A DNA stretch of 64,000 nucleotides. It comes from an uncultured Desulfobacter sp. GTDB taxonomy: Bacteria > Desulfobacterota > Desulfobacteria > Desulfobacterales > Desulfobacteraceae. The stretch spans positions 1,504,001-1,568,000 of the forward strand of contig OY762069.1 of NCBI GenBank assembly GCA_963665095.1, in the 5' to 3' direction. A model generated the notes under the pieces. That model did no database searches. It was not told the DNA's origin and worked only from the letters and a program-made list of their open reading frames with translations. A program made the translations under genes and the position numbers. How positions within the stretch are numbered: position 1 is the first letter of the stretch; each line of letters starts with the position of its first letter. Shown in pieces: positions 12,357 to 36,363 of the stretch.

Positions 12357-12459
12357 CCATGGGGCTGGATCAGGTTTAAACCACCCTACCGAAGGCTGTG
12401 ATTTACCGAAGGATCATACTGTCATACAAGCCCTTAGAACCAAATTTTAAGGAGGAAGT

Positions 12460-14522: not shown

Positions 14523-16433
14523 GAAAAAACAGCCATAGAGCAGAATATTACGATTTCGGTGAAACGGAGCCGGGCTCTGCTGAGGAGCAACCTGGTAAGG
14601 GATAGCCGGAAGCAGGCAGCATTGAATAATGCGCCAGGGGAAGTGGGGATTACCTGCTTCCCCTTTCTGCTTTATTCAAGCTGTTCTGCCTATGCCTTAA
14701 AAACCTACTGAGAAGGAGCGCAGCGACTTCTGTAGCTGTCTTAAATAATATGGAAAAGATTTAATCTGTTCAAAATAATTAGAAAATTTAAGTCAGGATA
14801 AAATGCGACTCAACAATAATAAAATCACCTGTTTCAGACATTGCCCTGATACCTGAAAACGTGGTTAATGAACGTTTGATATCAAACCCCGGAACCGAGA
14901 GTCTGGCTTTTTCGATAATGACTTCTAACGCTTTGGACGTCGTATCCGTATCAACCGGCAAAAATAGATCCTCGGCATCCGGTCCGATCATAAGGTTTGC
15001 ATGAACGGTTGGCGTTACCAAGATTCCCTTTCCCTTTGGCCCAGGCGCTTGAAAGATAACCTTGTCAGCCATATGTGCCTGGTCTTTTCCCAATAATAGA
15101 TATTGACCTTTACGTGGCTTAATGGTCAAAGGATCACCTAAAATTGCGGCTATTTTTCCACTGGCAAGTCCTGCAGCGTTGATAATATTTTTCGTTTCGT
15201 AGGTTCTGTTTACAGTTGTTACTTTAAAGCCTTCCAAATTTTTCTTTATATCTTCAACACCTTCTGAAAATTTAAATTCTACACCATTTGCAATGGCATT
15301 TTCAGACAGCGCTATTGTGAATTCATATGGTGAGGTGATTCCAATACTTGGAATGTACACGCCACCTAAGACTTCTGGATTGACATAAGGTAATAATTCA
15401 AGCATCTCTTCCCGGGACTTCATCACCATATCGGTTTGACCGACTTTTATGCCGTTTTCAATTTGTCTGTCTATGGTTTTAAAATCCTCCTCTTCAAAGG
15501 CCAGCATCACCCCGCCAGTCGATTTATATCCAAAATGCAATTCTGACTCTAACTGTTTATACATGGCATTACCCTTTATACACAGCTCCCCTTTGAGTGT
15601 GCCGTACTTACCCGCGTAACCGCCATGTACAATCCCGCTATTGGCCTTTGATGCGCCTAATGAGACATCGGATTCTTTCTCAAAGAGTGCGATGGATACG
15701 TTGCTGTATTTTGATAGGTTCCTTGCAATTGCGCATCCCACAACGCCTCCACCAATAATTATGATGTCATACATAAATTTCTTCCTCGCTTAAAATAGAA
15801 TCGTGTCTACTGGTGCCCTGAAATAGGCCTTTTTAACATACAACAGCATCATCTATCAAAACGTAACTATTCACCCTGATCCGCCATCAGGTTACCATCT
15901 GCAGCGTTGGCTGCAAGGCAAAAGGCTTGCTGAGTATACGTATACACCTCTAAGGGTGTGATCAGGGAAAAATTTTTGTTTCCACAGGGATATTGAATTC
16001 CTTAAAAATCACGGTGACCAGATCAATGGCTGGTCCTCCAGATGATCGCCCAACCATTTAGAAAAGAACCATGAAGTGAACTGAGTGATTAGATCATTCA
16101 TCCCGCAGCAGACAAGGATGTGTCAACCCTTCATTCTTTCACCCAAGGCAATAGCCTTATCCTTCTCGTCAGATTAAAGCCAATTAGAGAGGACATACTT
16201 TTAATAATAGTGTTGGGTTTTGAATTCACACCGGGTCCATTCCGATAATGATGTAGTCATCTGGTTCTGAGTTGATATTTTGCTCTCTTTTGTATTCTAA
16301 AATTTTCATTGTAAAGGTTTGCATACTCCATTTCAGAAACCATTATTGGGTTGATAATTGAATTTGAAGTTAGTATAGGACAACTATTTGATCATGAAAT
16401 GTAGTTGTTCAAATTTGAGAAAAAATTGTTAAT

Positions 16434-18035
16434 ATGATGATGCATATAAATCCGACCACGACAGAAACAGATGAACTACCAATCATTCCCATTGTTGATA
16501 TTTTTGCCGGCCCGGGGGGGTTGGGAGAAGGTTTCTCCGCTTTTCAATACAAAAATAATAATATTTTTAAAATTGTGTTTTCCGTCGAGAAGGACTTTTT
16601 CGCACACCAGACTTTAATGTTGAGAAGCTTTTTAAGGAATTTTGGTAAAAACAAATTTCCTGATGAATACTACGCATTCATTAGAGGAGAAATATCACTT
16701 GAAGATTTATACTCAGCGTTTCCCAAAGAAAGTGATTTGGCCCAAGGTGAAGCCTGTCACGGGACTTTGGGTGAAATTGATCAGTCGAAATTGGACAATA
16801 AAATAACTAAGGCCATTAATGGGGTTAAAAACTGGGTGCTAATCGGAGGTCCGCCGTGCCAAGCCTACTCAACAGTCGGTAGGTCTCGAAATAAGGGTAA
16901 ACAAGAGTATGTCCCCGAAAAAGATGATAAGCATTTTTTATATAAGGAATACCTTAGAATAATTGCGCACAACTGGCCTGCTGTTTTTATAATGGAGAAT
17001 GTAAAGGGGATCTTATCTTCAAAAATAAAGGGGAATTTAATTTTTCCTCATATTTTGTCTGATTTGAAAGATCCTGCACGGGCATTTAATAATGGAACGG
17101 GAGAAAAACAATATAAATATAAAATTTTTTCTTTAGCAAAGCCTCCAGATAGTGGTAGTGTTCAAGGCTTTCCTGTGTATAAAAATGTCCAAGATTATAT
17201 CATAAAAAGTGAAGAATATGGGATTCCTCAAACAAGGCATAGAGTTATTCTGCTTGGCATAAGAGAAGACTGTTTTAAAGAGAATCCCTCTATCCTCAAA
17301 AAATCCAAGCCAGTTTCTGTAAAGAAAATTATAGGGGGGTTACCGAAGCTCCGGAGTGGATTTTCAAGGGGAAAAGATTCTGGAACTCGATGGCTTAACT
17401 GGCTGTCCAAAATTCCTGAAAATCCATGGGTTATAGAAAAATCAGGTAACGAACTCAATCAAAAAATCAGGAGACAAATTGTTACAGATGTAAAAAAAAT
17501 CAAACTACCTAAACACGGAAGGGGTGGTGAGTATATTCCTTGCCGTGTGGCAGTTGATTGTCTCCAGGATTGGTACCTGGATCCAAAAATAAAGGGCGTA
17601 TGTAACAGTACAACCAGGGGGCATATGGATACAGATCTTTATCGGTATTTTTATGCAGCATGTTTTTCAAAAGTTAAAAAGAACGCCCCTGTACTTTCAA
17701 AATTCCCCGACAGTCTGCTTCCAAATCATAAAAATGCCCAAAGACCCAGCAAGCACGGAAATTTTGCAGATCGTTTCAGAGTTCAGGTCAGTTCAAGACC
17801 CTCAACCACGATTATGAGCCATATTGCCAAGGATGGGCATTACTACATACATTATGACCCCAGACAATGCAGGAGTCTCACTGTAAGAGAGGCTGCAAGA
17901 CTACAGACTTTTCCAGATAATTATTTTTTTTGTGGTGCAAGAACTCAACAATACACACAGGTTGGCAATGCGGTCCCCCCATTTCTGGCCTGCCAAATTG
18001 CCGAAGTCGTATTTAAAGTGCTTTTTAAAAGATGA
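16434..18035 (+). CDS. dcm: DNA (cytosine-5)-methyltransferase (DrmMII/Dcm-like)
   Basis: DIFAGPGG (motif I), GGPPCQ (IV), ENVKG (VI), QTRHR (VIII), REAARLQTFP and QVGNAVPP motifs. Confidence 0.93.
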   Translation: MMMHINPTTTETDELPIIPIVDIFAGPGGLGEGFSAFQYKNNNIFKIVFSVEKDFFAHQTLMLRSFLRNFGKNKFPDEYYAFIRGEISLEDLYSAFPKESDLAQGEACHGTLGEIDQSKLDNKITKAINGVKNWVLIGGPPCQAYSTVGRSRNKGKQEYVPEKDDKHFLYKEYLRIIAHNWPAVFIMENVKGILSSKIKGNLIFPHILSDLKDPARAFNNGTGEKQYKYKIFSLAKPPDSGSVQGFPVYKNVQDYIIKSEEYGIPQTRHRVILLGIREDCFKENPSILKKSKPVSVKKIIGGLPKLRSGFSRGKDSGTRWLNWLSKIPENPWVIEKSGNELNQKIRRQIVTDVKKIKLPKHGRGGEYIPCRVAVDCLQDWYLDPKIKGVCNSTTRGHMDTDLYRYFYAACFSKVKKNAPVLSKFPDSLLPNHKNAQRPSKHGNFADRFRVQVSSRPSTTIMSHIAKDGHYYIHYDPRQCRSLTVREAARLQTFPDNYFFCGARTQQYTQVGNAVPPFLACQIAEVVFKVLFKR

Positions 18036-18460
18036 TGGCTGAAATGGATAACTTATCAAAAGAAAAACGCAGTTGGAATATGGCTCAAATTACAGCTGCA
18101 AATACAAAGCCGGAAATTAAAGTTCGATCCATTTTGCATAGAGCAGGTTTCCGTTTTCGGCTACATAGAAAAGACCTACCAGGAAGGCCTGATATTGTTC
18201 TGCCAAAATACAATACTGCTATTTTCGTACACGGATGCTTCTGGCACAGGCACTTCGGATGCAAATTTGCCTATTTCCCCAAATCCAGGATCGAATTCTG
18301 GAAGGAAAAATTTGAAAAGACGGTCAAAAGGGATGAATTCGTTCAAATAGAGTTAAAAAAAGCTGGTTGGCGGGTGATTGTCGTATGGGAATGTGAAATC
18401 AAATCGAATGACATTGAGTCAAAACTTAAATCATTAATATTGAATAGGGACGACAACTGA
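18032..18460 (+). CDS. vsr: Very short patch repair endonuclease
   Basis: RSWNM...TKPE, LPGRPDIV, FVHGCFWHRH and GWRVIVVWEC motifs. Confidence 0.93.
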   Translation: MMAEMDNLSKEKRSWNMAQITAANTKPEIKVRSILHRAGFRFRLHRKDLPGRPDIVLPKYNTAIFVHGCFWHRHFGCKFAYFPKSRIEFWKEKFEKTVKRDEFVQIELKKAGWRVIVVWECEIKSNDIESKLKSLILNRDDN

Positions 18461-20310
18461 CACTTTCACCGATACAAAATCAAATCGTTCAATCTCCTGC
18501 AGGAAATATGCTTCTTGTAAAAGCCGGGCCTGGTACAGGTAAAACCTACAGCCTGATTGAAAGAATAAAATATCTTGTGGAACATGAAAAGTTGGAACCG
18601 GCTGTTCAGCTTCTCATTCTAAGTTTTTCCGTTGCCGCCGCTCAGGAAATAAAAGGCAGACTTCAACAGGCTGTAGAAAAACAAAGCTTTGATGATGAAC
18701 TGTTATATGTAAATATTCGAACCTTCGACTCCTTTGCATCCGGCTTCATGTATAGCTGGGACCCTGATATAAAACTTGAAGATAAAAACTACGAATCCCG
18801 AATTAAAATGGCAACGGAGTTGATCAACAATGTGGAGGGAGCTGGAGCTCGTCTGAAAAGTTACAGGCATATCATGATTGACGAGATTCAAGATCTGGTT
18901 GGGCCCAGAGCCTTGTTCAGCCTATCAATTATTAAAACAGCAGAATGTGGGTTTACGCTATTTGGTGACCCTGCTCAATCAATTTATAATTTTTTAAGAA
19001 AAGACGATCAGGAAGGCCTTACTTCGGACGAGTTTATTCTTAATGTCAAAAAAGCGTATCCAAAAACAAATGAGATCAATCTTCTTAAAAATTACAGAGT
19101 CGGCGACAATATAGAACTTCGGAGTATCGCAGAAGGAGGGAGGCAAAAACTTCTGGCCTGCACTCCGAACGAAGCATATTTTTATTTAAAAAATATATTT
19201 TCTGATTTAAAAGATTTTGGGAACATTAACGATATAACCCTGCCCTCAGATTTGCATACTTCAAAAACCGCGGTGCTATGCAGGACAAATGGGCAGGCCC
19301 TTCTTGCCGCAGGGCAGTTTTTTAAAAAAAACGGAAGATTTTTTATAAAAAGATCGGAAGAAGAAGCCTGCATCCAACCATGGATTGGCCGTCTATTGTT
19401 TAACTGGCACAGCCAGGTGATTAAAAAACAGGAATTTATCAAGTCTCTTTCCGAACTTGGGCATTCATTTTTTGTACAAGCAGATTCAATTTGGTCAGAT
19501 TTGGTAAGGCTTACGAAAACCAATGGAAATGCTGTTTCAGCTGTCACATTAAGAAGGATTTTGCTTGAGGGCGACTGTTTTGCCATTGATGAGTTCAGTC
19601 CTGGGCCTGATGAAGTAATAATTTCATCCATTCACCGTTCCAAAGGCAGAGAGTTCGATAACGTTGTCCTTGTTGTAAAAGAAGATATAAGGGAAGAGGA
19701 TTTTCTTGATGAAGGCCGGGTACTGTTTGTTGGTTTGACCCGGGCACAAAAGCAGCTTTTCAAGTTATCAGAAAGAGGGGGTGCTGGGCTAAAAAAAGTT
19801 CGGGAACGGTGGATCCGTATCATGTCTAACAGACAGGGAAACCTTTTGTTAACAGCAATTGAACTTGGAATTTCTGGCGATATCGATATTCATTCGCCAG
19901 TCTGTTTAAAATTTTTTGATTATGATTTAGATGAAATAAAACAGGGGCAGACTGATATTTGGAGTAAAGTCAGACGGGGGAGCGCCGTCCGGCTGAAATA
20001 TTGGGAATGTCAAAACGGAATACCTGTTTATTCAGTGGAAGTGGAGATTGATCATAATTTTATTGCCCTTTCCTGGACAACGATACATTTCGGGAGTGAA
20101 ATTCGAAAAATCCTTCAGGAAATAACCCAAAGAGGAGTTATCAAAAAATTTCCTACCGAGATAACCGATGTCTGGGTGAAAGATATAGTTACTGAGGTGG
20201 GAAACTTAGGACATGAAGACATTCCCCGTTCTATTCTGATTTCAGGGGTGTGGCTTGGGATAAGGATTCAGGGGCTGGGAAACTGTAGAGAGTGGAGGGA
20301 GATGAATTGA
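18457..20310 (+). CDS. UvrD/REP-like SF1 helicase with unknown C-terminal domain
   Basis: AGPGTGKT, IDEIQD, FGDPAQSIY, NYR, SIHRSKGREFD and FVGLTRA motifs; start probably CTG 18457 (first ATG is 18508). Confidence 0.85.
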   Translation: MTLSPIQNQIVQSPAGNMLLVKAGPGTGKTYSLIERIKYLVEHEKLEPAVQLLILSFSVAAAQEIKGRLQQAVEKQSFDDELLYVNIRTFDSFASGFMYSWDPDIKLEDKNYESRIKMATELINNVEGAGARLKSYRHIMIDEIQDLVGPRALFSLSIIKTAECGFTLFGDPAQSIYNFLRKDDQEGLTSDEFILNVKKAYPKTNEINLLKNYRVGDNIELRSIAEGGRQKLLACTPNEAYFYLKNIFSDLKDFGNINDITLPSDLHTSKTAVLCRTNGQALLAAGQFFKKNGRFFIKRSEEEACIQPWIGRLLFNWHSQVIKKQEFIKSLSELGHSFFVQADSIWSDLVRLTKTNGNAVSAVTLRRILLEGDCFAIDEFSPGPDEVIISSIHRSKGREFDNVVLVVKEDIREEDFLDEGRVLFVGLTRAQKQLFKLSERGGAGLKKVRERWIRIMSNRQGNLLLTAIELGISGDIDIHSPVCLKFFDYDLDEIKQGQTDIWSKVRRGSAVRLKYWECQNGIPVYSVEVEIDHNFIALSWTTIHFGSEIRKILQEITQRGVIKKFPTEITDVWVKDIVTEVGNLGHEDIPRSILISGVWLGIRIQGLGNCREWREMN

Positions 20311-21993
20311 ATAATCATGTTAATGCAAGAAATGATTTGATCAATTACCTGAAACGGGATCAGTTTGGCCCTTATGGCGGTGAAGTAGAGGAATTACCTG
20401 AAAACCCACTTAGAAGATATATGGTCGGTATACTTCATCCTCAGGGCAGTACGTTCACAGAAGCAAAAAATGACGGCGGTGTAGGTGGAGAATCCGGTAC
20501 TAAAGCAGATGACACAGAAATGGGCCTGAGTATGAGTAACACTCTTGCGCCATCCAGTTTCGGGCTTAGTTTCGCCTGTTCTAATGAAATAGACGCAGTT
20601 GAGGTATACGTCTCTGCCGGTAAGTATTTGCCAGCAGAAATTAGTCACATGGAAGCTGACAGCTCTCCGGACGGAAATAAAACAGTAAAGTGGAAAAGAG
20701 AAGATATCCGATGGTCCGGCCCGATTTTTATTAACGAAGCTGGAGATCAGAAAAAGTTACTCTTTGGTGAATGTCTGACAATAAGAGCCAGAGTCCGATC
20801 TGTTGATAAATTCGGAAAAAGATCTGTGACTCTTTCTGTAGTTAATGAGCAAAAATGTTCAGCAGACAGCAGGCAAAAAGACCGTGCGTTACGCAGCTTT
20901 TTTCAGGTTGCGTTTGGAGCCGTCAGCCTTGATGAAAAATTTCCTTTTGTCAATCGAACAACCGGGATAACTGACTCTTCTGTTTCAGAAGAAAATGCCC
21001 TGCGTCTTATTTATAGAAATATTCATACTTATGCGGTTGGGCATGGCTGCTCTGCTGACTGGGAAAAAGATTCTGAAAAAGAAAGATGCCGAAGCGTTTT
21101 TTCAAGTTTTGTTCCAACACATACTGTTTACCCTATGATTCAACCCAAGGATTACGGCCTTCCAGAGTACAGTCTTAAAGAAATATCAGAGAGTTCACTC
21201 CCAGATCTCCAGAGTCTGTTATCAGTTATACCGGAAAGTTATTCGTATTGGATTGAAGATCTTGAAAAGCAGATTCCAGCTCTGGATAAAAACCTCCAGC
21301 CTCAGGCTAAGGAGCATATTCGATTGTGTTGTGAAGCCTCAAACCGGATTCGTAATGGAATAGATCTGCTGGGAGAAGATGAAATGGTATTTTCTGCTTT
21401 TATATTAATGCATAAAGCTATGTTGCAGCAGGTTGCAAGATCTCAATGGATCAAAAACAATTATCCGGAAGAAGGTCCTCAGTTAACTAATGAACATGCC
21501 TGGTATCCATTTCAGATTGCTTTTATTTTGCAGAATCTGCCATCGTTGGTAGATCCTGGTTCAGATGACAGGAATACAGTTGATTTGTTGTGGTTTCCTA
21601 CAGGCGGCGGAAAAACCGAAGCATATCTGGGGATTATTGCTTTTATGCTTTTTTTCAGGCGATTGAGAAGCCTTAAAAAAGGGGGAAATGGAGGCGGAAC
21701 ATCGGCACTGATGCGATATACACTTCGATTGCTTACAGTGGATCAGTTTTACAGGGCGGCTCTTCTGATATGTGCATGTGAAACAATTCGACAGGATGCT
21801 TCCGTTTCCATCGCGGGTACGGCACCGATAAGTATCGGGCTGTGGGTTGGATCCGAAGCATGCCCCAATACCCGAAAAGATGCACGGGAAAAACTTGAAG
21901 CTATTAAAAAAGGCCATGACGCAGGCGAATCAGGCGATCCCCTGAAGATTAAACAATGCCCGTGGTGCGGAACCGAAATAATCCCTTCAGATT

Positions 21994-23310
21994 CAGTAGT
22001 GTCCGGTTAGGTTGTTGCATATAAAAAACATCTAAAATTATTCAAAAAAACGTCATTTTTATGTTGACAAATGTGCGTATAAATTTTTGCGCGCCTTGAA
22101 AAATTTTATCAAGGAGCCCAAATGACGCGCATTTCAATTACCAAAGCCACAATACAGTCCCTGAATTTTGACAAGTTTCGTGACCCTCTGATAAGGTCGT
22201 TTCCACAAGCACCAGAATTGAAATCTCGAGGAGACCGACCGTTAAAAATGACATTCGAAGACCAGATAAATGCCCTGATTTATTTCCATCTGCAGGAACA
22301 CAAATCAGCCCGGCATTTAGTCCAAGATCTCAAGGAAAATATTTTTGCCAAAGAACATATTGCTCCGGAAGGCGGTATCAGCCGCAGTAGCTTTTGCGAA
22401 GCAGTCAACCACCGAGGGCTTGAACAACTGCAATTTTTGTTCGAAGACCTTTATAAACAGGCTGTTGGGTGTCTACCAAAGGAGCATGCTGAGTTGGGCG
22501 ATCTGGTATCCATTGACGGCAGTCTTATAAATGCTGTTCTTTCAATGCATTGGGCCAACTACAGGAAAGGAAGCAAGAAAGCCAAAGCACATTGCGGATT
22601 TGATATTAATCACGGCATTCCAAACAAAATATTTCTGACAGAGGGCAATGGAGCTGAGCGTCCTTTTGTTCCAAAGATACTTTCCAAAGGGCAAACCGGT
22701 GTCATGGATCGTGGTTATCAATCACATCACGATTTTGATCTGCTTCAGGCGCAGGGCAAGCATTTTGTTTGCCGTATAAAAGCCAAAACAACCAGAACGG
22801 TAATTGATACTCACGAAGTCAACGCTGACAGTTACATCTTTTATGACGCTCTGGTTCTTCTTGGCACTCCGAATCAAAACCAGACGAAAATGCCGGTTCG
22901 GGTTGTTGGCTATAAAATTGCCGGTGTGAAATACTATGTGGCAACGGACAGGCATGATTTAACAGCAGAACAAATAGCGACCGTTTATAAACTCCGGTGG
23001 ACCATTGAAGATTTTTTCAAATGGTGGAAAGAGCACCTGAAAGTTTACCACCTCATTGCCCGTAGTGAATATGGCCTCATGGTGCAAATCCTTAGTGGCC
23101 TCATCACGTACCTGTTGCTGGCAATCTATTGCCGAGACGAATTTAACGAGAAGGTTTCTGTTAAAAGGGTTCGACAGCTAAGAACAGCCATCTTGAATGA
23201 TCTGATCGAGCAGAACCAGGGTGTGACTGAGGGTTTAAACAGAGACAATATTGTCAAAGATCAAAAAATCACAAGTACAGCGCAAGCAAAAACCTAACCG
23301 GACACTACTG
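21994..23310 (+). mobile_element. IS4-family insertion sequence, 1317 bp
   Basis: 20-bp perfect inverted repeats CAGTAGTGTCCGGTTAGGTT; 9-bp target duplication CTTCAGATT (21985-21993 / 23311-23319). Confidence 0.95.
22122..23297 (+). CDS. IS4-family transposase
   Basis: IDGS, MDRGY and YKLRWTIEDFFKWWK motifs. Confidence 0.92.
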   Translation: MTRISITKATIQSLNFDKFRDPLIRSFPQAPELKSRGDRPLKMTFEDQINALIYFHLQEHKSARHLVQDLKENIFAKEHIAPEGGISRSSFCEAVNHRGLEQLQFLFEDLYKQAVGCLPKEHAELGDLVSIDGSLINAVLSMHWANYRKGSKKAKAHCGFDINHGIPNKIFLTEGNGAERPFVPKILSKGQTGVMDRGYQSHHDFDLLQAQGKHFVCRIKAKTTRTVIDTHEVNADSYIFYDALVLLGTPNQNQTKMPVRVVGYKIAGVKYYVATDRHDLTAEQIATVYKLRWTIEDFFKWWKEHLKVYHLIARSEYGLMVQILSGLITYLLLAIYCRDEFNEKVSVKRVRQLRTAILNDLIEQNQGVTEGLNRDNIVKDQKITSTAQAKT

Positions 23311-24783
23311 CTTCAGATTATGAAATTCCTGATAAAGTGAATCCCATGAGGATAAACTGTCCGAATTCAAAATGTAATTTTAATGAGGGCCTTCCCATCT
23401 GGCTGATAGATACGGATGTCTATCATTTTCGACCATCTTTGATAATTGGGACTGCTGATAAATTTGCCAGAATTCCATGGGTTAAAGAAGCCGGGAATAT
23501 TTTTGGATGTGACGGGAAATCAGAGCCCCCCGAGTTGATTATTCAGGACGAGCTCCATCTGATATCCGGGCCCTTGGGCACGCTTGCCGGCCTGTATGAA
23601 ACCGCTGTTGACAAGTTATGCTGTTCAAAAGACGGTTTCGGACCGAAGATAATTGCCTCAACTGCAACCATCCGCAATGCAGAAAGGCAGGTTAAAGACT
23701 TATTTTGCAGGAAAGTGGCCCAGTTTCCTCCTGCCGGACTTAATTACAATAATTCTTTTTTTGCCAAGGAGGACAGAAATGCCCCGGGAAGAATTTATGC
23801 CGGTGTTTTCACTCCAGGTACGAGCCCTACAACGGCCTTGGTAAGAACATTTGGTATTCTTCTGCACGGAGGGAAAAAAATTGAATACGATGATGGTGTC
23901 AGAGATGCTTACTGGACTTTGATGGGGTATTTTAACAGTTTGCGAGAACTTGGCGGGGCCAGTGTGCAGGTGGAAGACGATGTCAATGATTACCTCAAAG
24001 TCTGTGCAGAAAGGGACGGAGACAAGAATGATTACAGAATGGTTCAATATAAAAAAGAGCTGACAGGCAGAGTCCCTTCTGCTGAATTGGATGAGATTAG
24101 ACTGGGATTGTCAAACTCTTTTCCCGATGAAACCTGTTATGACGCAGTATTGGCAACAAATATGATTTCCGTCGGATTGGATGTCCCCCGTTTGGGGGTA
24201 ATGGCCGTTGTAGGGCAGCCTAAATCTACTTCGGAATATATACAGGCAACCAGCCGTATAGGCCGGCGTTTTCCCGGGCTCGTTGTTGTATTATACAACT
24301 GGACTAGATCTCGTGATAGATCTCACTATGAACGGTTTAATGCTTATCATTCGAAACTATACAGCGAAGTCGAGGCGACAAGCGTTACCCCTTTTTCTTC
24401 AAGAGCCAGGGACAGGGGGCTTCATGCCGTAGTGATAAGCCTTGTCCGGCACCTGATCCCCAGTATGAGGGATAATTCCGCTGCCGTGGAATTTAAAGGG
24501 AACTCTGACGCAGTTAAACAGATGGTAAAATATATTCTTGAGCGAGTGAACAATATAGATGACAAAGAAACATTTGATACAAAAAAAGCTCTGGAAGAAA
24601 TTCTTGATAAATGGGACAGACTCGCTCTTGACGGAGACCTTGAATATCAAAAAAAGGGAATAAAAGATGTCAGGTCTCTTATGATTCCAATAGAAAAAAT
24701 AAAATTAGACTCCAATTCATTTGGCACACTTAATTCACTGCGAAATATTGATCCGGCTGCAGGATTGAAACTGGAGGGGTAGC

Positions 24784-26499
24784 ATGAGTTCAATTGGAGA
24801 AATACAAAGAAGTCAGTTGATTACAACCTATGGGATTGGTTCTATTTATGATGCCCGTGACTATTCTGTTATCATTGCCTGCCAGGATGACTGGGAGATA
24901 AAGAATACAGAAATTATTTATGAAGAACGTCTCCAGAAAAAGCTTGGCAAGGAATATTTTAGACAGCCTGGTGTTATCGAAAATATTCCCACTATTCCTT
25001 CATATAGATTTCCGGAATGGGTTTTCTGTCCAAAATGTAAAAGTTTAAGACATATTCGCAAACTTAATGAAAGAAAACAAAAAAAGTGCGCTATATGCAA
25101 GGTAAACTATGTTCCTGCAAGGTTTATAATTGCTTGTGAAAATGGGCATTTGAGCGATTTCCCATGGGAATGGTGGGTTCATGAAGGAGAAATTTGCGAG
25201 ACTCCCAAGCTAAAAATTCATACGACCGGCAGCACAACTTCACTGGCAGGGATAAGTGTTAGCTGTGAGAATTGCCCAGCGTCCCGTACGCTTGAGGGGA
25301 TTTTTGGTCGATACGCATTAAAAGGATTCAAGTGTTTTGGAAAAAAACCATGGATGGGTCCTTATGAGAAAGGTGAAGAGTGTTCAGAATCGCCAAGGGT
25401 TCTACAGCGTGGTTCGGCCAGCGTTTATTATTCCCAGACGGAATCTGCCATCTCAATCCCCCCATACTCTGAAAGAATTCATGATTTTTTAAGGCAGTTT
25501 GATGACGACCTTGAATATATCCCGGAAAACTTATTAGAAAAATGGCTGGAAGGCAAGATGGAAAAAACCGGTGAACGGTTTGATATGGAAGCTTTGCTCA
25601 AAGCAGTAAAATTTAGAAAAGATCCGGATAAAAATAAAAATCAACATGACTCTGATTTACGGCAGGCTGAATACGAAGCGTTGTGCAATCCTGGGAAGAT
25701 GGATCCGGCAAATGAATTTGCTGCTGAACAGGGCAGTGTCCCAATAATGTACAAAGAACAAATTTCAAAAATTGTTCTGGTACATCGGCTGCGAGAAGTG
25801 AAGGTCTTAACAGGATTTAACCGAATCATCCCTGACAATGGTAAGACCGCTCCTATAAGTAAAAAAGAACAAAATTGGCTGCCTGCCGCCGAAATGAAAG
25901 GCGAGGGAATTTTTATAGAACTTGCGAGCCGCTCGATGGAGAAATGGGTTTCAAATTGTAGCTCTCAAATTTCAAACAGGATTAAAAAACTTGAAAAGAA
26001 TAGACAGACACTGCTTGAACATAACAAGGTTTGGACGGTTGAGCATACTGTTACACCTCAGTTTTTAATCCTGCATACATTGGCTCATATTCTTATCCAG
26101 CAGTTGATCCTTGACTGTGGATATTCCAGTTCTTCTCTGAGAGAACGGCTTTATTACAGCGATGGCAGAAAAGGGCAAAAAAAGATGAACGGTTTTTTGA
26201 TTTATACTGCTACTTCTGATTCAGAAGGAAGTTTAGGGGGGCTTGTTAGACAAGGAGAACTTTCCCGTTTTACAGCTGTTTTGAATAAATCCTTTGAAAA
26301 TGCGCGCTGGTGTTCAAGTGACCCACTGTGCATAGAATCAGAAGGACAGGGTAATAATTCGTTAAATCTTGCTGCATGCCATTCCTGCTGTCTTCTTCCG
26401 GAAACTTCATGTGAATATCGAAATTCTTACCTGGATCGTGGAGTAGTAGTCGGATTAGGAGACGCTTCAACACAAGGATTTTTCCCTGAAATTTTATAA
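24784..26499 (+). CDS. drmB: DISARM DrmB-like DUF1998 protein
   Basis: RSQLITTYGIGS, PARFIIACENGH, LHTLAHILI, SEGSLGGL, CSSDPLC and AACHSCCLLPETSCE motifs. Confidence 0.88.
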   Translation: MSSIGEIQRSQLITTYGIGSIYDARDYSVIIACQDDWEIKNTEIIYEERLQKKLGKEYFRQPGVIENIPTIPSYRFPEWVFCPKCKSLRHIRKLNERKQKKCAICKVNYVPARFIIACENGHLSDFPWEWWVHEGEICETPKLKIHTTGSTTSLAGISVSCENCPASRTLEGIFGRYALKGFKCFGKKPWMGPYEKGEECSESPRVLQRGSASVYYSQTESAISIPPYSERIHDFLRQFDDDLEYIPENLLEKWLEGKMEKTGERFDMEALLKAVKFRKDPDKNKNQHDSDLRQAEYEALCNPGKMDPANEFAAEQGSVPIMYKEQISKIVLVHRLREVKVLTGFNRIIPDNGKTAPISKKEQNWLPAAEMKGEGIFIELASRSMEKWVSNCSSQISNRIKKLEKNRQTLLEHNKVWTVEHTVTPQFLILHTLAHILIQQLILDCGYSSSSLRERLYYSDGRKGQKKMNGFLIYTATSDSEGSLGGLVRQGELSRFTAVLNKSFENARWCSSDPLCIESEGQGNNSLNLAACHSCCLLPETSCEYRNSYLDRGVVVGLGDASTQGFFPEIL

Positions 26500-26520
26500 A
26501 CAAAATCGAAGGCTTTTAAA

Positions 26521-28260
26521 ATGGCAAAGATGATACCGAACTTTATTCATCCTGACTGTAAAAGCAACGCTGAAAAATTAATATTCCAAAAATTTAGCGC
26601 TGAGTTGTCGGATAACTATTCGGTACTGCATTCACTTGGAATTGCTAAACATGGTGGAAAATTACGAGGAGAGATTGATTTCGTAGTTGTGTGTCCCAAG
26701 GGTATTCTCTGTATTGAAGTAAAGGGGGGCAGAATAAAACAGGAAAACGGAATTTGGTATTTTACAAACAAATTTGGTGAATCTTTTGCAAAAAAAGAAT
26801 CGCCTTTTGAGCAGGCATCTTCTGGAATGTATGCTCTACGAAAAGGGCTGGAAAAAAAGTTCGGCTGGAATTCGCCGCAATGTCAATCTATTTTAGGTTA
26901 TTGTGTCTTCTTTCCTGATCAGAAATTCTCACTGGAATCCCCGGAATGGGATCTTAATCGACTTATTGATGAAAAAAAATTAACAGAATCAATCTCAACC
27001 CTGATAGAGATGCAATATAATTATTCCATGGAGGAAATAGCGCGGATTACAGGAAAGAAAAATTTCCCTTTTATGTCCCAATCTGAAGTAAGCCTTTTGT
27101 TAAGATATCTTAGGCCGAATTTTGAAAAAATTCCTTCACTGTCATCTATAATTCAAGAAAACCACCGACATCTGCTTAAAATGACAGAGGAGCAGTTTGA
27201 CATACTGGACCAGTTGGCGGCCAATGACCGCATACTGATTCAAGGTGGCGCAGGCACAGGCAAAACGGTTCTTGCCGCCGAAAAAGCCCGTCGAGAAATT
27301 CAGAAAGGCAAACGTGTGCTCTACCTGTGTTATAACAAGCTTCTGGCTACCCATATCCAAGCCAGTTTCCAGGACGAAATAAAACATGGCTTAATAGAAA
27401 TCAACACCCTGCATAGCTATGCAAAAAAAATAATTAAAAATGCCGGACTTGCTTTGCGGCTGAATGAGAATACAGACGAGGATCTTTTCAGAGAAAAGTA
27501 CCCTGATGTTTTTGAGCAGGCAGTTGTTGAATTGTTTGAGGCGCCGCCTTTTGATATCTGCATTGTTGATGAGGGACAAGATTTAAGATTCGAAGCTTAT
27601 ATAAAAATGATAGACTGGCTTATCGAGGGCGGTATCCAGAATGGAAGATGGGTGTGGTTTGAAGATAGCCAACAGAATATTTTTAATGTCGGCGTCATTG
27701 ACGGTATTTCTATAGTTGAAGAAAGCAGACCCGTTGTCTGCCAGTTGACCAGGAACTGTAGAAACACAAAACCAATAAGCATCTTTAACAGTTTAACCAC
27801 AGGTGTCCCAAAACAGAAATGCCTCGTAAACAAGGGCCTGAAAGTCGATTCAACTTTTTTTAGAAGTAAAAAGCATCAACAGAAACTTCTGGAGAATCTC
27901 TTGCAAAAACTTTTGGGGGGAGGCATTGTGGCTGAAGACATTGTTTTATTGTCTCCATTTACAAAACAAAAATCCGTTTTAGATAATTTAGACTCAATTG
28001 CCGGGATGACGCTGAAAGAATATCCTGCACAGAAATCCAATCACTCTAAAATCCTTCAATATACAACTGTTCAGAAATTTAAAGGTTTGGAATCAAAAGT
28101 GGTGATTGTTACTGATATACTGAAATTAAAAGAATCTGTTGCTAAAAGTATCAACTATGTTGCGTTCTCCAGAGCAACTTCTTATCTTCAAGTGCTTATG
28201 CATGAAAGCACAGAAAAGGACTATGGCGACCTTGCATTTGAATTTGCATTGAGAGATTAA
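26521..28260 (+). CDS. NERD nuclease-domain / SF1 helicase fusion
   Basis: EIDFVV...IEVKGG (NERD), GGAGTGKT, VDEGQD, NCRNT, FKGLES and YVAFSRA motifs. Confidence 0.85.
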   Translation: MAKMIPNFIHPDCKSNAEKLIFQKFSAELSDNYSVLHSLGIAKHGGKLRGEIDFVVVCPKGILCIEVKGGRIKQENGIWYFTNKFGESFAKKESPFEQASSGMYALRKGLEKKFGWNSPQCQSILGYCVFFPDQKFSLESPEWDLNRLIDEKKLTESISTLIEMQYNYSMEEIARITGKKNFPFMSQSEVSLLLRYLRPNFEKIPSLSSIIQENHRHLLKMTEEQFDILDQLAANDRILIQGGAGTGKTVLAAEKARREIQKGKRVLYLCYNKLLATHIQASFQDEIKHGLIEINTLHSYAKKIIKNAGLALRLNENTDEDLFREKYPDVFEQAVVELFEAPPFDICIVDEGQDLRFEAYIKMIDWLIEGGIQNGRWVWFEDSQQNIFNVGVIDGISIVEESRPVVCQLTRNCRNTKPISIFNSLTTGVPKQKCLVNKGLKVDSTFFRSKKHQQKLLENLLQKLLGGGIVAEDIVLLSPFTKQKSVLDNLDSIAGMTLKEYPAQKSNHSKILQYTTVQKFKGLESKVVIVTDILKLKESVAKSINYVAFSRATSYLQVLMHESTEKDYGDLAFEFALRD

Positions 28261-28277
28261 AATATATTCGAGGGCAG

Positions 28278-31200
28278 ATGTCAGAAATCAAAATAATTTA
28301 TGATCTCCAGAGATTCACAAATGAAATCGATTCTCTTTATCAACTGATTGCAGAAGAACAAGGTCGGTGTCTTGCAAATTATGAGCATGTTGGGCGGACT
28401 GTACCTGAGCGGATTTCATTTGAAGAGATTGATTTAAGTCCTCTTAAAAACAGACTGCTGTCCGTTCATAAGACTCTTGAATATAAGGGAAGGTTTTTAT
28501 CTCCCCAAAGAGCCCGAAAGGCCCGAATCATAGCTATCGGCGGGATATGTGAACTCATTAAAGATGGGTATGTCGGTAAGTTTTGGGACCTTTACAGAAG
28601 TCATATTGGTGAAGATAACCGAGGTTTCGTATATGACAAAATATGGGCTAAAGGGTTTAAGGAATCTGGAATTGAATTGATTCAGGGAGAGAGGAGGGAA
28701 TTTGTTCAAACCCTTGTCATGGAAAGTGGGGTGCCGAAGGAGAGAACAGGAGATATAATTTCCTTTTTTGAAATTTACTGGCGATACTTGAGGCCTATGG
28801 ACGTAAAGGAAATTATTTCAGATTTAAATGAGAATTCATATCTTTCTTTTCGCAAAGTGCCAAGGCTGGAACGTAGTAAACTAAAAAAACTGTCAGAAAA
28901 TGCTTCAGAATATACAAGAGCATTTGTAAGGGCTGTAGACAGGTTGACTGCGGTATTTGATTTCATCTCTGAATCTGAAAAAATTCATGGCGGAAATGTA
29001 AGAGAGTTTGCAAACGAAATTTTTAAGGGAACAGGCATTCATCCTTTTAGTTTTCTTCGTAATCACGAACAGCTCGAACTCTTGTATAAAAAACTGCTTG
29101 GGTATGTTACACCCTCAAAATTTAAAAAAATTATAGAAACTAAACCTCCCAATACCCTCATCACCACGCCTGATGGGAAAAAGATAAAAGCGCACCAGTA
29201 TCACAATATTATTTTTGGAGAACATTTACTGGAAAACGCATTATTTTTTTGTGTGCCCGATAAAAATTTTGATCTAAAAAAATTGAAATCGATTCAACAT
29301 AATAGAATTGAAAAGTTCGGCAATTCAGTGTTACTGAAATCGAATGCTGATATTATTCCACGGGTTAATTCGTCTTTAAGAAATGACCTCGTTAATACTT
29401 TTTATTTCAATAAGGAAAAATGTGGAAATATTTTTTATTTCCGAGATATATCTGGATGCAGCATACACCTTAAAACTTCAGATAAAAAAGTTAATGATTT
29501 CATATATGGTGATGATGGATTCTCTGGTAATTGTTTTTTGATGGCAGAAAAAAAGAATGATACGATTTCCCTCCATCTTAAGGTAAAGACCTTACGATTA
29601 TTGTGCAGGGGGCTTCGAGATAAAAATATCCTGTTTAAAATTCCTGAATATAATTTGCTTATTCATGAAGGAAGGTGTGATCCAACAGGCTTGGCAAGAT
29701 GTTCAGAAAGAAGGTTCCCCATAGAAAACCCCCAACCCGGCAATATAGAAATCCAGGCAACAAAAATTAATAAGCATGGAGGAGACGCCCCTGTCTTTTT
29801 AAGCAACGGAGGCAAGGCTTCGATATTAGAGTGTCTGGATGATGTAATGCTTTTTCATGCAGGCTCTGGATATCGTATCCGGCCCAAAAAGGCTGGTCAA
29901 GGCTACTCAATCGGTGGAGACAGTTTCTTTCTGTTTTGCTCAGAAGCTGTGTTGCAAAAACGTGTTAGAAAAGCAAACCTCAGGATTGAAAAGTCAATAA
30001 AATATGGAAAATATTTTGTTTCTCTTATTGTCTGGAAAGACACCAGTTTACCCTGTTCTTTCTCTATTGAAAATAATATCGGTGATAATATCACATGGAA
30101 ATTTGAAAAGTGTGTCAATTTTAATATTTGGGTGGAGAAAAAAAAGAAGGACCGCGCAACTCATCTTAAATTTAATGGATACCAGGGTCAGCACCCGAAT
30201 AACTTTGAACTCAAGATATATCCTTTCCCCTCGATTGAATATCAGAAAACATTGTTTTGGAGTATTTCTTTGAATGACTGCTCACCGTATATCATAGAAG
30301 TGGGAAATTGTTGTCAGGATGAGCACAAAAAATCATGTTTTTATGAGAACTATTTAAGTGAGCTGTTAATGCCGGTTTGGAGTGGACAAAAACCAAGCAA
30401 TACAAAAGTTGAGATAGCATTGTGTACACTTGATTTTGTTTTTTCCATGACCCAATTTTATCTATTGCCTGATATAGCCATCAAGCTTCCCGAAGCTGTT
30501 CGATTAAACGACGAATTTAAGATCAAAGTATTATGGGGAGAAAATCAGAAGTGCCAGGATGTTCTTTTAAAAAATAGAAGAGGCAGAAGTCTTGTCACAG
30601 CAGGATTTCAATTCAAAAACAATTCGTGGCAGATATTTAAAAAGCGTCATATTTCAGATTTTTTAATCCCAGATGTTGATACCGTCGTCAGAATAGAAGC
30701 CGAACAGCCTCTTAGAAGTATATTGTTGGGTAATCGCGAACGGCTATATAAAGAGCGTCTAAGAGATTTGAAAGTTACAGAATTAGCCGAATATGACCTG
30801 CTTGTCGTAGAGCCGGGTAATAATATCCCTTCTGTTTCAGTAAATGGCATAGCGTATAATGATTCTTTTGTAAAAAATGATTTCGGGGTATGGTCTTTAC
30901 CTCTTGGTGCAATGCCAGGTCTTAACCAATTTCAAAATTCAATAATAATCAACGCCGGAGATGAAAGTTCCACGTTTAATATTTTCTGTCCAATGACAAT
31001 TAGGAATATCTGTTTTGATGATAGTCTTTTTTGCAATGCTTTGAGCGGGAAATGTTCTTTTGCGGGTCCGAATGGATCCGAAATAGTAATTCGTGTTTAT
31101 CCTGAGAAAGATAAAAAAGAAGATATATTTTTAGAAAAAAAATATGTGGCACCTGGGATGCAAGATGTTGACATTGATTTCTCACTTGATCTACCTGTTT

Positions 31201-31574
31201 TTGAAGAATTTTTGCCAGATCAACTTTTTGTTAGTGTCTTTTATTCTAATGAAAAAGGTGGATTAATTGAGTATGAAAAGTCGTTTTGTGTTAGTTCAGA
31301 ACGACACTTATGTAAAACAAAGTTTCATAAAATAAAACAAAGAATAGATCAGGACCTCAAGGAACACAAAACATATTCTGCCAAACGCCTTCTCGAATTG
31401 GCTGCTCCTTATGTCCCCGGTTTCCAGGAAAAATGGTTTAACGTTCAATGGAACAGGGTTTGGGGTGAGTATATTAGGAAAACTTTAGATTCGGCAGCAT
31501 CTCAGATTACGACAATTCTCAAAGAAAACTATCTGATTGATTTTACAGGTGATGAATACAATGGGAAAAAGTGA
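28278..31574 (+). CDS. Large hypothetical protein (1098 aa)
   Basis: Long intact ORF, GAGG RBS, co-directional with the defence genes; no confident motif. Confidence 0.75.
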   Translation: MSEIKIIYDLQRFTNEIDSLYQLIAEEQGRCLANYEHVGRTVPERISFEEIDLSPLKNRLLSVHKTLEYKGRFLSPQRARKARIIAIGGICELIKDGYVGKFWDLYRSHIGEDNRGFVYDKIWAKGFKESGIELIQGERREFVQTLVMESGVPKERTGDIISFFEIYWRYLRPMDVKEIISDLNENSYLSFRKVPRLERSKLKKLSENASEYTRAFVRAVDRLTAVFDFISESEKIHGGNVREFANEIFKGTGIHPFSFLRNHEQLELLYKKLLGYVTPSKFKKIIETKPPNTLITTPDGKKIKAHQYHNIIFGEHLLENALFFCVPDKNFDLKKLKSIQHNRIEKFGNSVLLKSNADIIPRVNSSLRNDLVNTFYFNKEKCGNIFYFRDISGCSIHLKTSDKKVNDFIYGDDGFSGNCFLMAEKKNDTISLHLKVKTLRLLCRGLRDKNILFKIPEYNLLIHEGRCDPTGLARCSERRFPIENPQPGNIEIQATKINKHGGDAPVFLSNGGKASILECLDDVMLFHAGSGYRIRPKKAGQGYSIGGDSFFLFCSEAVLQKRVRKANLRIEKSIKYGKYFVSLIVWKDTSLPCSFSIENNIGDNITWKFEKCVNFNIWVEKKKKDRATHLKFNGYQGQHPNNFELKIYPFPSIEYQKTLFWSISLNDCSPYIIEVGNCCQDEHKKSCFYENYLSELLMPVWSGQKPSNTKVEIALCTLDFVFSMTQFYLLPDIAIKLPEAVRLNDEFKIKVLWGENQKCQDVLLKNRRGRSLVTAGFQFKNNSWQIFKKRHISDFLIPDVDTVVRIEAEQPLRSILLGNRERLYKERLRDLKVTELAEYDLLVVEPGNNIPSVSVNGIAYNDSFVKNDFGVWSLPLGAMPGLNQFQNSIIINAGDESSTFNIFCPMTIRNICFDDSLFCNALSGKCSFAGPNGSEIVIRVYPEKDKKEDIFLEKKYVAPGMQDVDIDFSLDLPVFEEFLPDQLFVSVFYSNEKGGLIEYEKSFCVSSERHLCKTKFHKIKQRIDQDLKEHKTYSAKRLLELAAPYVPGFQEKWFNVQWNRVWGEYIRKTLDSAASQITTILKENYLIDFTGDEYNGKK

Positions 31575-32751
31575 TAACCTTGATGCAAAAAAAGCATGTT
31601 TTGAGAGCTTGCTTTCGGAAATGCCTTGGAATGATTTAGTCAGCGTAATAAAATTCGAGGGTAAACTAAAAAAAGGCGGTTTTCGTCTTAACTCTAAAAA
31701 TCGTAATGTAATTCAAGCAAACTTGATTCCAAAATGTTTGGCAAACCAAGAGTTGCAGTTCTCTTTTTTTAAGACATGGTTTAATGCTAAATCAGAATAT
31801 TTTGATTTGCTCGAGCCTTTTTTTAATTCTGAAAAACATGATGAACTGATTAAAAATTTAGAATTAGAAAATGGATTTTATACCTTTGATGATGAGTATT
31901 TTTTAAAATTTTTAAAAATATTAAAAGCGAATGATGTCGAAAAATTCATTATGTTAAGTCCAATCCACTTTACTGAGATGCAGAAATCTATTCTTTTGAG
32001 TATGGCGAGCATTGCCTGTGATGCATGCGCAGGGAATAGTAGTTCCTATCAGGAAACGAATTTGGCTCAACAAAAAGAAATAAAGAACGAGCTGAAAAAA
32101 TACAAAAAAACTGTTGGAACTATTGAGAAAAAAAATAAAGACTTATACAAACAAATGGAAACTCTCCAAAAACAGCTTGAGAGTCAAAAAGAAAAATATT
32201 CGAAGATTATTGCACATCATGAAATGTCTTTGAGGGACACGGAACAGAAAATTATAGCCCTGGAAAAAGAAAATGAAGTCGGTAACAATGAAATCCGAGA
32301 TATAAAAAAGCTATTGATGTCAAAAAACATAGAATTCCAGAATCTTGAAAAAGAAAACGGTAGAATTAAAAAAAATGGGGTGACTGTAAAACTCAGCCAT
32401 ATTTTTGCACAAGTCGAAATGCAAAAATTATTGGAGGAACTCCAAATACCGGACGACTTTAGGCAACAACTAGAAAATTCTGTAAAATTCTCAGATGATG
32501 ACTTGGACGCAGATACAGAAATAAGCTTTAAGTCTTTTTGGGAATCAAATATTTTATTGGAGTACGAATTATTTGATTTAATAGATAATTTTTACACTGA
32601 TGACGTGATTGATAAAAAGTATTTCCCAAACTGGGCAACGATAAAAGATAAATTTAATGATTTAAAATTTTCACTTTCATCTAGACGATATCTTATAGAT
32701 ATCACCCACAGAATTTTAAGACAGTATTATGAAACCCATAATTTGAACTGA
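31561..32751 (+). CDS. Hypothetical protein with a central coiled coil
   Basis: ATG overlaps the end of the previous gene; K/E/Q-rich heptad-like segment in the middle of the protein. Confidence 0.7.
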   Translation: MGKSDNLDAKKACFESLLSEMPWNDLVSVIKFEGKLKKGGFRLNSKNRNVIQANLIPKCLANQELQFSFFKTWFNAKSEYFDLLEPFFNSEKHDELIKNLELENGFYTFDDEYFLKFLKILKANDVEKFIMLSPIHFTEMQKSILLSMASIACDACAGNSSSYQETNLAQQKEIKNELKKYKKTVGTIEKKNKDLYKQMETLQKQLESQKEKYSKIIAHHEMSLRDTEQKIIALEKENEVGNNEIRDIKKLLMSKNIEFQNLEKENGRIKKNGVTVKLSHIFAQVEMQKLLEELQIPDDFRQQLENSVKFSDDDLDADTEISFKSFWESNILLEYELFDLIDNFYTDDVIDKKYFPNWATIKDKFNDLKFSLSSRRYLIDITHRILRQYYETHNLN

Positions 32752-32997
32752 ATTTTAAAATTTAGCAAACATCAAAGCGAGAAGAATCAGTTTGGACAAA
32801 ATCTGACTGTCAGGGCCGTCTTGAAAATGCAGCCAAATCCCCGGTTTGAAAATGTATGTTCTTAGCTGGTTTTTCTTCTCTTAAAAATCAAATTTAAAAA
32901 TTTCGTCTTCTTCATTTTTTTCCTTTCTTTGCCCTATGCTTTTTTCCGTACATACTGATCTTATTCATGTCTGATTTGAATCGGAGGCAATATGTAG

Positions 32998-36060: not shown

Positions 36061-36363
36061 CAAAGCCGAGGCCGGTCTACATGCATCTGGAGGCCGGCCC
36101 TTTAATCGCCTACATTTTTAAACCGGGAGATTTATGACATGTTCACGCCCCGCCTGACATCTGACAGATGCCTATTTTGAAATATCTGTGAGTTTAAGTC
36201 TGAACTCTGCAAGGAGGCCTACCATTATTGGTTACCTGAATCGAAAATTTGGCCAGATCAAATCAAGGGTCTGAGGTGAAGACTACCCCTTGGTCAGCCT
36301 CTGTTTTTTAGTCGGTCGACCACCCCGGACTATCTGTAATTCTATGTAAATACAATATCACTC

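Follow-up and report, generated by a model that had tools for sequence, protein, structure and literature searches.

A six-gene unit within a DISARM-like operon

We analysed a 64,000-nucleotide stretch of contig OY762069.1 from an uncultured Desulfobacter sp. (hereafter the window) and found that it carries, between positions 16434 and 32751, a DISARM-like operon whose conserved unit is six genes: uvrD, drmA, drmB, a NERD nuclease-helicase gene, a gene for a 1098-amino-acid (aa) protein and a gene for a coiled-coil protein. The genes for a C5 cytosine methyltransferase (MTase) and a Vsr endonuclease that precede these six are exchangeable neighbours. The operon is a conserved though uncommon relative of DISARM; judged by composition, it is neither class I nor class II and is DISARM-like at its core. 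From gene content and order we are fairly confident that the six genes form a defence system, and we lean, with less assurance, towards a horizontally acquired system against phages or mobile genetic elements that would work through the DISARM helicase DrmA-DrmB and sense DNA structure, not sequence. The 1098-aa protein, as far as its sequence tells, is DruH-like in its N-terminal domain and is not a DruH.

Nine long open reading frames (ORFs), all on the + strand, are close-packed in this block and represent eight genes, with drmA in two pieces on either side of an insertion sequence (IS):

16434..18035, + strand: C5 MTase, 533 aa, DrmMII-like (PF00145 6e-43; TIGR00675 above cut-off; PADLOC DrmMII 8e-88)
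18032..18460, + strand: Vsr very-short-patch repair endonuclease, 142 aa (PF03852 6e-30; TIGR00632 above cut-off)
18457..20310, + strand: compact UvrD/GajB-like superfamily 1 (SF1) helicase, ~617 aa (PF00580 1e-24; PADLOC GajB 6e-29)
20292..21993 (ORF to 22010), + strand: 5′ part of drmA, superfamily 2 helicase, Walker A motif PTGGGKT (PADLOC DrmA 3.5e-86; NF038325)
21994..23310, + strand: IS4-family element within drmA (1317 bp long, with inverted repeats of 17 bp and a target duplication of 9 bp)
23311..24782 (ORF from 23337), + strand: 3′ part of drmA, DELH and QATSR motifs (PADLOC DrmA 1.4e-153; 7s9v E 2.6e-92)
24784..26499, + strand: DrmB (DUF1998/MZB zinc-binding partner of DrmA), 571 aa (NF038324 509 bits, cut-off 240 bits; PF09369; PADLOC DrmB 2.6e-89)
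26521..28260, + strand: fusion of a NERD (PD-(D/E)xK-type) nuclease with an SF1 helicase, 579 aa (PF08378 3e-14; UvrD-type matches; PADLOC RTasNERD-Hel 2.7e-59)
28278..31574, + strand: 1098-aa protein of an unnamed family, DruH/YjiT-like N-terminal domain at about aa 45-173
31561..32751, + strand: helical protein with a central coiled coil at about aa 165-270 (396 aa from ATG; 404 aa from TTG 31537)

Successive gene junctions measure -4, +47 and -19 bases, then the IS, then +1, +21 and +17 bases, and the last two genes overlap. Without the IS the block has a GC content of 39.0%, against 48.7% for the whole genome, and all ORFs lie where a first-pass annotation of the window had placed them, which bears out its description of eight co-directional, tightly packed genes in an AT-rich block. 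Scans for promoters and for terminators gave chance-level results (39 against 41.7, and 19 against 14.9, respectively).

The cassette recurs in distant lineages

A metagenome scan with the 1098-aa family recovered 12 loci. All six complete loci share the order uvrD-drmA-drmB-NERD/helicase-1098 aa-coiled coil, the six that are cut by contig ends agree with it as far as visible, and the coiled-coil gene directly follows the 1098-aa gene in seven of the seven loci with enough downstream DNA. These loci are not independent: L025-L029 form one lineage, to which L024 is close; L022 and L030 (with L031 next to it) add two more, and the window brings the number of lineages to four. The cassette loci span 35-55% GC, with 22-70% identity between lineages. 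They formed one clade in a DrmB tree (99/99), and since this clade lies apart from the DISARM-like loci of the host's family, the window's cassette came from outside. The 1098-aa gene was present in none of 400 other genomes of the host phylum, and the family had no match in plasmids (four family queries plus the L076 protein), in viral contigs or among PDB sequences. Neighbours of the relatives are themselves defence genes (EcoRII, SIR2-HerA, Lamassu-like, RAMP).

An independent link to the same core came from L076 and its relative L080, the latter found among 66 genomes, which represent another phylum, another gene order and another DrmB clade. Here the operon encodes, in this order, a 1098-aa-like protein (a distant relative, E 5e-11), a 456-aa helical/coiled-coil protein, an Hsp70-like protein, uvrD, drmA, drmB and a NERD-helicase, with an MTase and Vsr adjacent. 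The association of the extra genes with drmA and drmB, which the first-pass annotation had proposed to check by synteny, held both in the six complete loci and in L076/L080. The 456-aa protein of L076 has no detectable homology to the window's coiled-coil protein (E 0.3). In their own right, the Hsp70-like ATPase and coiled coils (L076:7671-13523, L080:13897-19998) are reminiscent of CoCoNuT systems. A profile of the distant group of the 1098-aa family gave two matches in a sample of 401 Bacillota genomes (the phylum of L001, the DrmC control locus used below).

It could be that the working system is the four-gene core uvrD-drmA-drmB-NERD, and that the last two genes are a separate module or optional add-on inherited with one DrmB clade. 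Eight plasmid records carry this UvrD; among the five examined, four have the four-gene core (Azospirillum, two Rhizobium and Shinella), one lacks NERD, and none has the last two genes. In L075 (422-7043), a 1035-aa family member is preceded directly by a Lamassu-like trio (324 aa, MC6, DUF2326) and followed by a RAMP gene, on a 12.8-kb contig with no drmAB in view. Both observations tell against our main reading, that of L075 also against an obligatory link between the 1098-aa protein and DrmAB, and because the six-gene loci are a single DrmB clade, their shared order may be shared descent. Against the add-on model, however, the same core is accompanied in L076 and L080 by a second, distant subfamily member, the last two genes have tight 17-bp and overlapping junctions, and all six genes show one and the same closest-pair pattern. 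We consider this alternative unlikely. A claim of co-evolution was dropped, as rank correlations of pairwise identities (five sequences) were too weak, and a 988-aa protein beside the core in L070 proved not to belong to the 1098-aa family.

DrmB occurred in 20 of 160 genomes of the host family. At the 16 of these loci that we examined, a DrmC match was never found, a full-length NERD-helicase was present in 13, and an MTase and Vsr similar to those of the window lay at the end in four. DrmC-less, NERD-bearing DrmAB operons are common.

The screen also brought up other gene arrangements. L041-L044 in the host family (e.g. L042:1350-15766) are another DrmC-less variant, encoding a 567-aa unknown, a 517-aa protein with a DrmE_C match that is possibly a split DrmE, a NERD-helicase, DrmA, DrmB, AIPR, an MTase and Vsr. 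L045-L056 (e.g. L053:5095-14566) are a third, with its own DrmB clade; they encode DrmA, DrmB, a ~380-aa bare SF1 helicase, a ~520-aa protein without Pfam or PADLOC match and a NERD-helicase, which 3 of 12 loci either lack or do not show. L067:12451-24394 holds dcm, a RelA/SpoT-domain gene, uvrD, drmA and drmB, followed directly by an ARMADA-like helicase-MTase-helicase-UvrD set. L069:3111-20500 holds dcm, an ATPase, a McrBC-like DUF2357/PD-(D/E)xK gene, vsr, the four-gene core and a Gabija-resembling ATPase and helicase pair. Downstream of the cassette in L024 (17728-23081) are a SIR2-HerA pair and a 535-aa protein of no assigned family.

The methyltransferase and Vsr are variable neighbours

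The operon's MTase retains the motifs FAGPGG, GPPCQ, ENV and GNAV and has no cognate restriction enzyme inside the operon. In the cassette loci no MTase or Vsr lay upstream of uvrD within the 1.3-1.5 kb in view. L022 has an MTase 50% identical to the window's 3′ of the last cassette gene, L024-L026 and L029 have a Dcm-type MTase with its own EcoRII-type enzyme, and the contigs of L028 and L030 end too early to show whether one is present. Of the eight-gene unit described in the first-pass annotation, six genes in conserved order remain; the place and the family of the MTase and Vsr differ from relative to relative, and its description of the system as methylation-based is an overstatement.

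These data bear on the possibility of an eight-gene system resembling restriction–modification (R-M), in which this C5 MTase marks self and is an obligatory subunit equivalent to DrmMII. Its top PADLOC model is indeed DrmMII. The MTase of L022 and the MTase-Vsr pairs that end DISARM-like operons in four of the 16 host-family loci point the same way, as does the presence of some C5 MTase near L022, L024-L026, L029, L067, L069, L070, L076 and L081. A dcm+UvrD+DrmAB module also appears in the available part of the Tiamat preprint (10.64898/2026.09.30.754977). Yet position, strand and subfamily of the MTase vary, the Dcm- and EcoRII-type pairs of L024-L026/L029 are ordinary R-M systems, no C5 MTase was seen in L068, and L071 has a type III-like N6/N4 MTase instead. 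DISARM, moreover, acts on phages without target sites (PMC9142583, in the part available). We judge an obligatory role for this MTase improbable.

A DruH/YjiT-like N-terminal domain in the 1098-aa protein

For the 1098-aa protein, searches of Pfam, PADLOC, NCBIfam and PHROG returned no match. Its relatives, 76 clusters at E<=0.001 among 1.84 billion, fall into a close group of 23 and a distant group of ~1000-aa proteins. A motif in the protein, which we took to be DruH/YjiT-like, prompted comparisons with that family. Feature searches of the ESM Atlas gave YjiT_N-bearing clusters at 0.87-0.88 and 0.78-0.79, under the 0.9 level, and these served as leads only. Profile A1 of the 1098-aa family matched K-12 YjiT with a profile-profile probability of 67 (E 5e-5) and, at full length, a 10-row DruH alignment with E 1.6e-4 (20 of 20 shuffles at E>=0.38). 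Between the N-terminal parts (79 against 10 rows) the probability was 91.2 (E 9.8e-7) over 116 columns, residues 57-173; all of 30 shuffles stayed at E>=0.14, and three unrelated profiles gave E 0.33-0.51. To the points against the likeness, gathered below, belong the pairwise nature of all E-values and the fact that this highest score was reached on parts trimmed to the region of the initial match. In hidden Markov model (HMM) searches of 511 ORFs, DruH/YjiT and the 1098-aa family were each other's only outside match (E 4.5e-4; 0.007-0.009), and the DruH HMM gave nine domain matches among 61 family members and none among 305 shuffles.

The two families have four collinear motifs in common, represented in the 1098-aa family by R45 (40 of 59 rows), E92 (44), K95 (50), W103 and E149-x-G-x-P (53, 56 and 55), and in DruH by R29 (8 of 10 rows), E75, W88 and E135-G-G-x-P. 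They also share a length class of ~1100 aa. In PaDruH the essential residues of the N-terminal cleft are R22, K28 and E64 (2026 DruH preprint); judging from spacing, R45 and E92 may match R22 and E64, and K28 has no evident counterpart. The 1098-aa protein diverges faster than the helicase (mean identity 38%, against 66% for DrmA), and fast divergence has also been reported for DruH (2026 DruH preprint). One close relative, P0013, comes from a 3.3-kb contig whose source label, which depends on the binning, is a Promethearchaeota archaeon metagenome-assembled genome.

Several results count against the DruH likeness. The full-length comparison with DruH reached a probability of only 50, and the distant subfamily merely 5 (E 0.008). 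PADLOC DruH models missed the 1098-aa protein and 47 relatives, and NF038336 (DruH) missed it and seven relatives, both matching the K-12 YjiT control. Profile A1 did not recover the DruH entry 9tud from PDB sequences at E<=10, and the L075 and L076 proteins had no match to the DruH HMM. Beyond aa 173 a single stretch aligns with DruH at E 0.07, and neither an array of immunoglobulin (Ig)-like domains nor a C-terminal pocket for single-stranded DNA (ssDNA) was apparent by sequence. Weighing both sides, we hold that the N-terminal domain is probably a true homologue of that of DruH. The first-pass annotation had proposed a different effector module here; because of the DruH/YjiT-like N-terminal domain, a sensor or substrate-processing subunit is the more probable role.

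Alternatively, the 1098-aa protein could lack a nuclease role and serve as a scaffold or as an infection sensor that recognises proteins, its DruH likeness being an old shared domain or chance. One DruH preprint interprets DruH itself in this way, as a sensor of proteins whose Ig-like domains are under positive selection, and the fast divergence of the family and the missing counterpart of the essential PaDruH lysine would suit such a role. Of 59 rows, however, 40 retain the Arg and 44 the Glu that align with those of DruH, beyond what a passive scaffold would need, and we give this explanation little weight.

Comparison with known systems

Definitions of the DISARM classes were taken from PMC9252829 and PMC9142583. 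These two sources, together with 10.1101/2025.09.15.676423, 10.64898/2026.09.30.754977 and 10.64898/2026.05.13.724758, were available in part, and what follows holds for those parts. DISARM class II comprises DrmA, DrmB, DrmC and DrmE together with DrmMII (PMC9252829). The operon resembles it in having DrmA and DrmB as separate, adjacent genes above family cut-offs (drmB follows drmA after one base and passes NF038324), a C5 MTase nearby and a trigger-loop-like segment. It differs in lacking DrmC and DrmE and in adding UvrD-like, NERD-helicase, DruH-like and coiled-coil proteins; and whereas class II has a fixed DrmMII with a CCWGG target, the operon's MTase has DrmMII as its best model but varies in position and family among relatives. 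It differs from class I in that Pfam, PADLOC and NCBIfam scans of the operon proteins matched neither DrmD (SNF2 helicase) nor DrmMI (adenine MTase).

None of the nine operon proteins had an HKD motif or a PADLOC DrmC match, the DrmC of L001 being positive for both, and tblastn with a DrmC found no DrmC-like gene elsewhere in the 6.9-Mb genome. The first-pass annotation was therefore right that a phospholipase D-type nuclease is missing, and right too about a DISARM core with three helicases and no DrmC or DrmE, given the matches to DrmA, DrmB and a DrmMII-like MTase. DrmE had no PADLOC, NCBIfam or Pfam match among the operon proteins; PF24957 does match L041/L042 proteins, and tblastn of the genome with two DrmE-like proteins from these loci returned nothing. 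A scan of genome contigs with DrmB found one locus, a canonical DrmC-bearing system.

Druantia type III consists of DruH and DruE (10.64898/2026.05.12.722862, 10.64898/2026.05.12.724681, 10.64898/2026.05.13.724758, 10.64898/2026.05.13.724313). Like Druantia, the operon encodes a fast-evolving protein of ~1100 aa whose N-terminal domain is DruH-like, alongside a helicase of the YprA/DUF1998 family. In contrast to Druantia, the helicase is split into DrmA and DrmB, the largest being the 1054-aa DrmA against a fused DruE of ~2000 aa; the 1098-aa protein misses the DruH HMMs; and the cassette has four more genes. [quoted passage not shown]

ARMADA type II (10.1101/2025.09.15.676423) likewise has three helicases and a methyltransferase, including YprA-like and GajB/UvrD-like helicases. 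The operon differs from it in having no BrxHII/RapA-like helicase or PglX-like adenine MTase, in a YprA module split as in DISARM, and in a UvrD without an N-terminal RelE domain. The Tiamat-like Type III-C neighbourhood (10.64898/2026.09.30.754977) shares the cytosine MTase, GajB-like UvrD, DrmA and DrmB; instead of its Tiamat/GHL ATPase the operon has the NERD-helicase, DruH-like and coiled-coil genes. TALON (10.1101/2025.09.15.676423) pairs a YprA-family helicase with a NERD nuclease, and differs in its ARMADA-like fused YprA, TPR-CSD and TBP genes, none of which was seen in the operon.

The search for a full match to a described system, through PADLOC models and the literature, thus left a composition that fits neither DISARM class. 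Bell et al. mention many uncharacterised DISARM-like classes without describing them, and DruH goes unmentioned in the available part (10.1101/2025.09.15.676423); the available parts of PMC10542128, PMC11529989, 10.64898/2026.05.13.724758, PMC12839542 and PMC10853773 held nothing closer. Our literature search, whose scope left out subscription journals and preprint supplements, found no paper pairing a DruH/YjiT-like gene with DrmAB. As to the non-canonical composition claimed at first pass, the absence of DrmC (PMC9142583) and the dcm+UvrD+DrmAB module (10.64898/2026.09.30.754977) are already in print, and the uvrD-drmA-drmB-NERD core is widespread (4/5 plasmid loci); what is new relative to these sources is the DruH-like 1098-aa protein. 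The DrmC-less NERD core is thus less surprising than that annotation held, and the DruH-like subunit more so.

A possible mechanism

A trigger loop keeps DrmAB inactive; the pair binds ssDNA and is loaded onto DNA that has a 5′ single-stranded overhang. DISARM can do without DrmC, which many systems lack, and restricts phages that have none of its target sites (PMC9142583). Published work has not settled by what route DISARM destroys phage DNA, and the origin of the activating 5′ overhang is so far a proposal (PMC9142583; 10.64898/2026.05.13.724758). [quoted passage not shown]

Building on this, we tentatively propose that the 1098-aa protein would bind or trim exposed phage ssDNA or forks, giving 5′ overhangs on which DrmAB could load and unwind. 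The NERD-helicase, whose E, D and EVKG motif is unchanged in 12 of 12 aligned homologues, is a candidate degrading enzyme in DrmC's place and would act on the unwound strand. The UvrD-like helicase might prolong unwinding or clear proteins, and the coiled-coil protein might bridge the DruH-like protein to the helicase, comparable to the helical stalk of DruE in Druantia; the 396-aa protein had merely coiled-coil-type family matches below cut-off, and a word search for relatives found none. Whichever C5 MTase lies nearby would damp self-targeting, and Vsr would repair the resulting T:G mismatches. The scheme draws on gene content, the six-gene order, intact catalytic motifs and a natural intact allele, with the functional steps inferred. 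It falls somewhat short of what we would call likely, and the dispute over DruH function among four 2026 preprints tells against it.

Put more generally, and just as guardedly, the operon could be a DISARM-Druantia hybrid, with DrmAB, not DruE, being served by a second branch of the DruH superfamily that has so far gone unrecognised: the DruH-like protein would trim phage forks, a stand-alone coiled-coil adaptor would replace the DruE stalk and the NERD-helicase would degrade. If so, the upstream trigger and the nuclease that DISARM is missing would both come from one natural operon, and DruH-like proteins would be portable front ends for YprA-family helicases. DruH has been described as specific to Druantia III (2026 DruH preprint). 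A remote branch beside DrmAB, if true, would widen the family, link two YprA-helicase systems mechanistically and represent a class missed by current HMM libraries. In this operon, candidates for DISARM's DNA destruction and for the 5′ overhang source stand together in a single unit that occurs naturally, is intact and can be cloned. That the genes are not a defence system but a cassette for DNA repair or recombination (YprA/MrfA-like, UvrD and Vsr) would agree with the known repair roles of UvrD, Vsr and YprA-family helicases, but is very improbable given the operon's patchy spread (0/400 other phylum genomes with the 1098-aa gene), foreign GC, defence neighbours, DrmA/DrmB family membership and tolerated IS knock-out.

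An insertion in drmA and its intact alleles

Excision of the IS4 element and one target duplication restores drmA as a single 1054-aa frame. The element has 10 copies at >=99% identity across the 6.9-Mb genome, four of them identical, the drmA copy included; three identical copies lie 1931 bp apart at G000:C1:3756373-3761551. Four public runs (X4, X6, X9 and X10) were compared with the operon region. In X4 and X6, from two studies, one contig each joins 21984 to 23311 at full depth, giving an IS-free drmA; X9 and X10 are too fragmented to decide on the IS. X4, which might be related to the window's source and is nevertheless without the IS, is otherwise identical to the window over 16000-32833. 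The operon is intact in close strains and the insertion is recent; because the IS splits drmA, the system in the source genome is probably off. With one allele broken by IS4 and the other intact, these near-identical strains provide a knock-out pair made by nature, and the repair that the first-pass annotation foresaw before cloning is superfluous, as X4 and X6 supply IS-free alleles.

X6 differs from the window at 26 positions, all inside 18219-19995 (vsr and uvrD), the remainder of 16000-32807 being identical. Eleven differences are silent and 15 change an amino acid, with no stop, and 18 of the 26 are G/C to A/T; this 1.8-kb divergent tract has the look of alleles exchanged through recombination inside the island. 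In X9 the 1098-aa gene shows an insertion of 4 bases, which was set aside as probably arising from ligation because the same four bases stand at the start of loose ends in X9 and X10.

Intact DrmA orthologues from L022, L024, L030 and L076 exceed the NF038325 cut-off (967-1004 bits against 950). DrmA aligns with the solved DrmA 7s9v, its residues 22-51 and 72-569 flanking the 7s9v trigger loop (176-232); at about aa 52-83 it has a short acidic/Gly-rich trigger-loop-like segment, shorter than the 7s9v loop.

The start and C-terminal part of the UvrD-like helicase

Helicase motifs of the UvrD-like protein are kept in 5 of 5 orthologues, and its C-terminal domain of ~180 aa is conserved and outside known families, with zero PHROG matches; a HIRAN-like identity for it would be speculative. 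The ORF listing starts uvrD at ATG 18508; an alternative CTG at 18457 overlaps the vsr stop by four bases. Because 4 of 4 orthologues start with TTG ~17 codons upstream (L022:1496, L024:1333, L026:1334, L030:545), and because ATG 18508 reads as a Lys codon in X6, the true start is probably CTG 18457. The start codon would then be weak throughout the clade, which suggests that the UvrD level is held low.

Surroundings of the operon

A 3.1-kb IS (small ORF, rve integrase, AAA ATPase) at 11718-14817, with 12 further full copies, appears to split a gene for an FAD-dependent oxidoreductase (14788-15774 and 11229-11744, - strand). An IS21-type element with two extra upstream ORFs occupies 32808-36160 and has nine further full copies. 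These flanking elements were rejected as ends of the island, being multi-copy residents. A tRNA-Phe gene (51407-51482, - strand) lies 19 kb from the operon with no sign of being an integration site. A ParD/ParE pair at 36438-36972 has a second copy, 98% identical, elsewhere in the genome.

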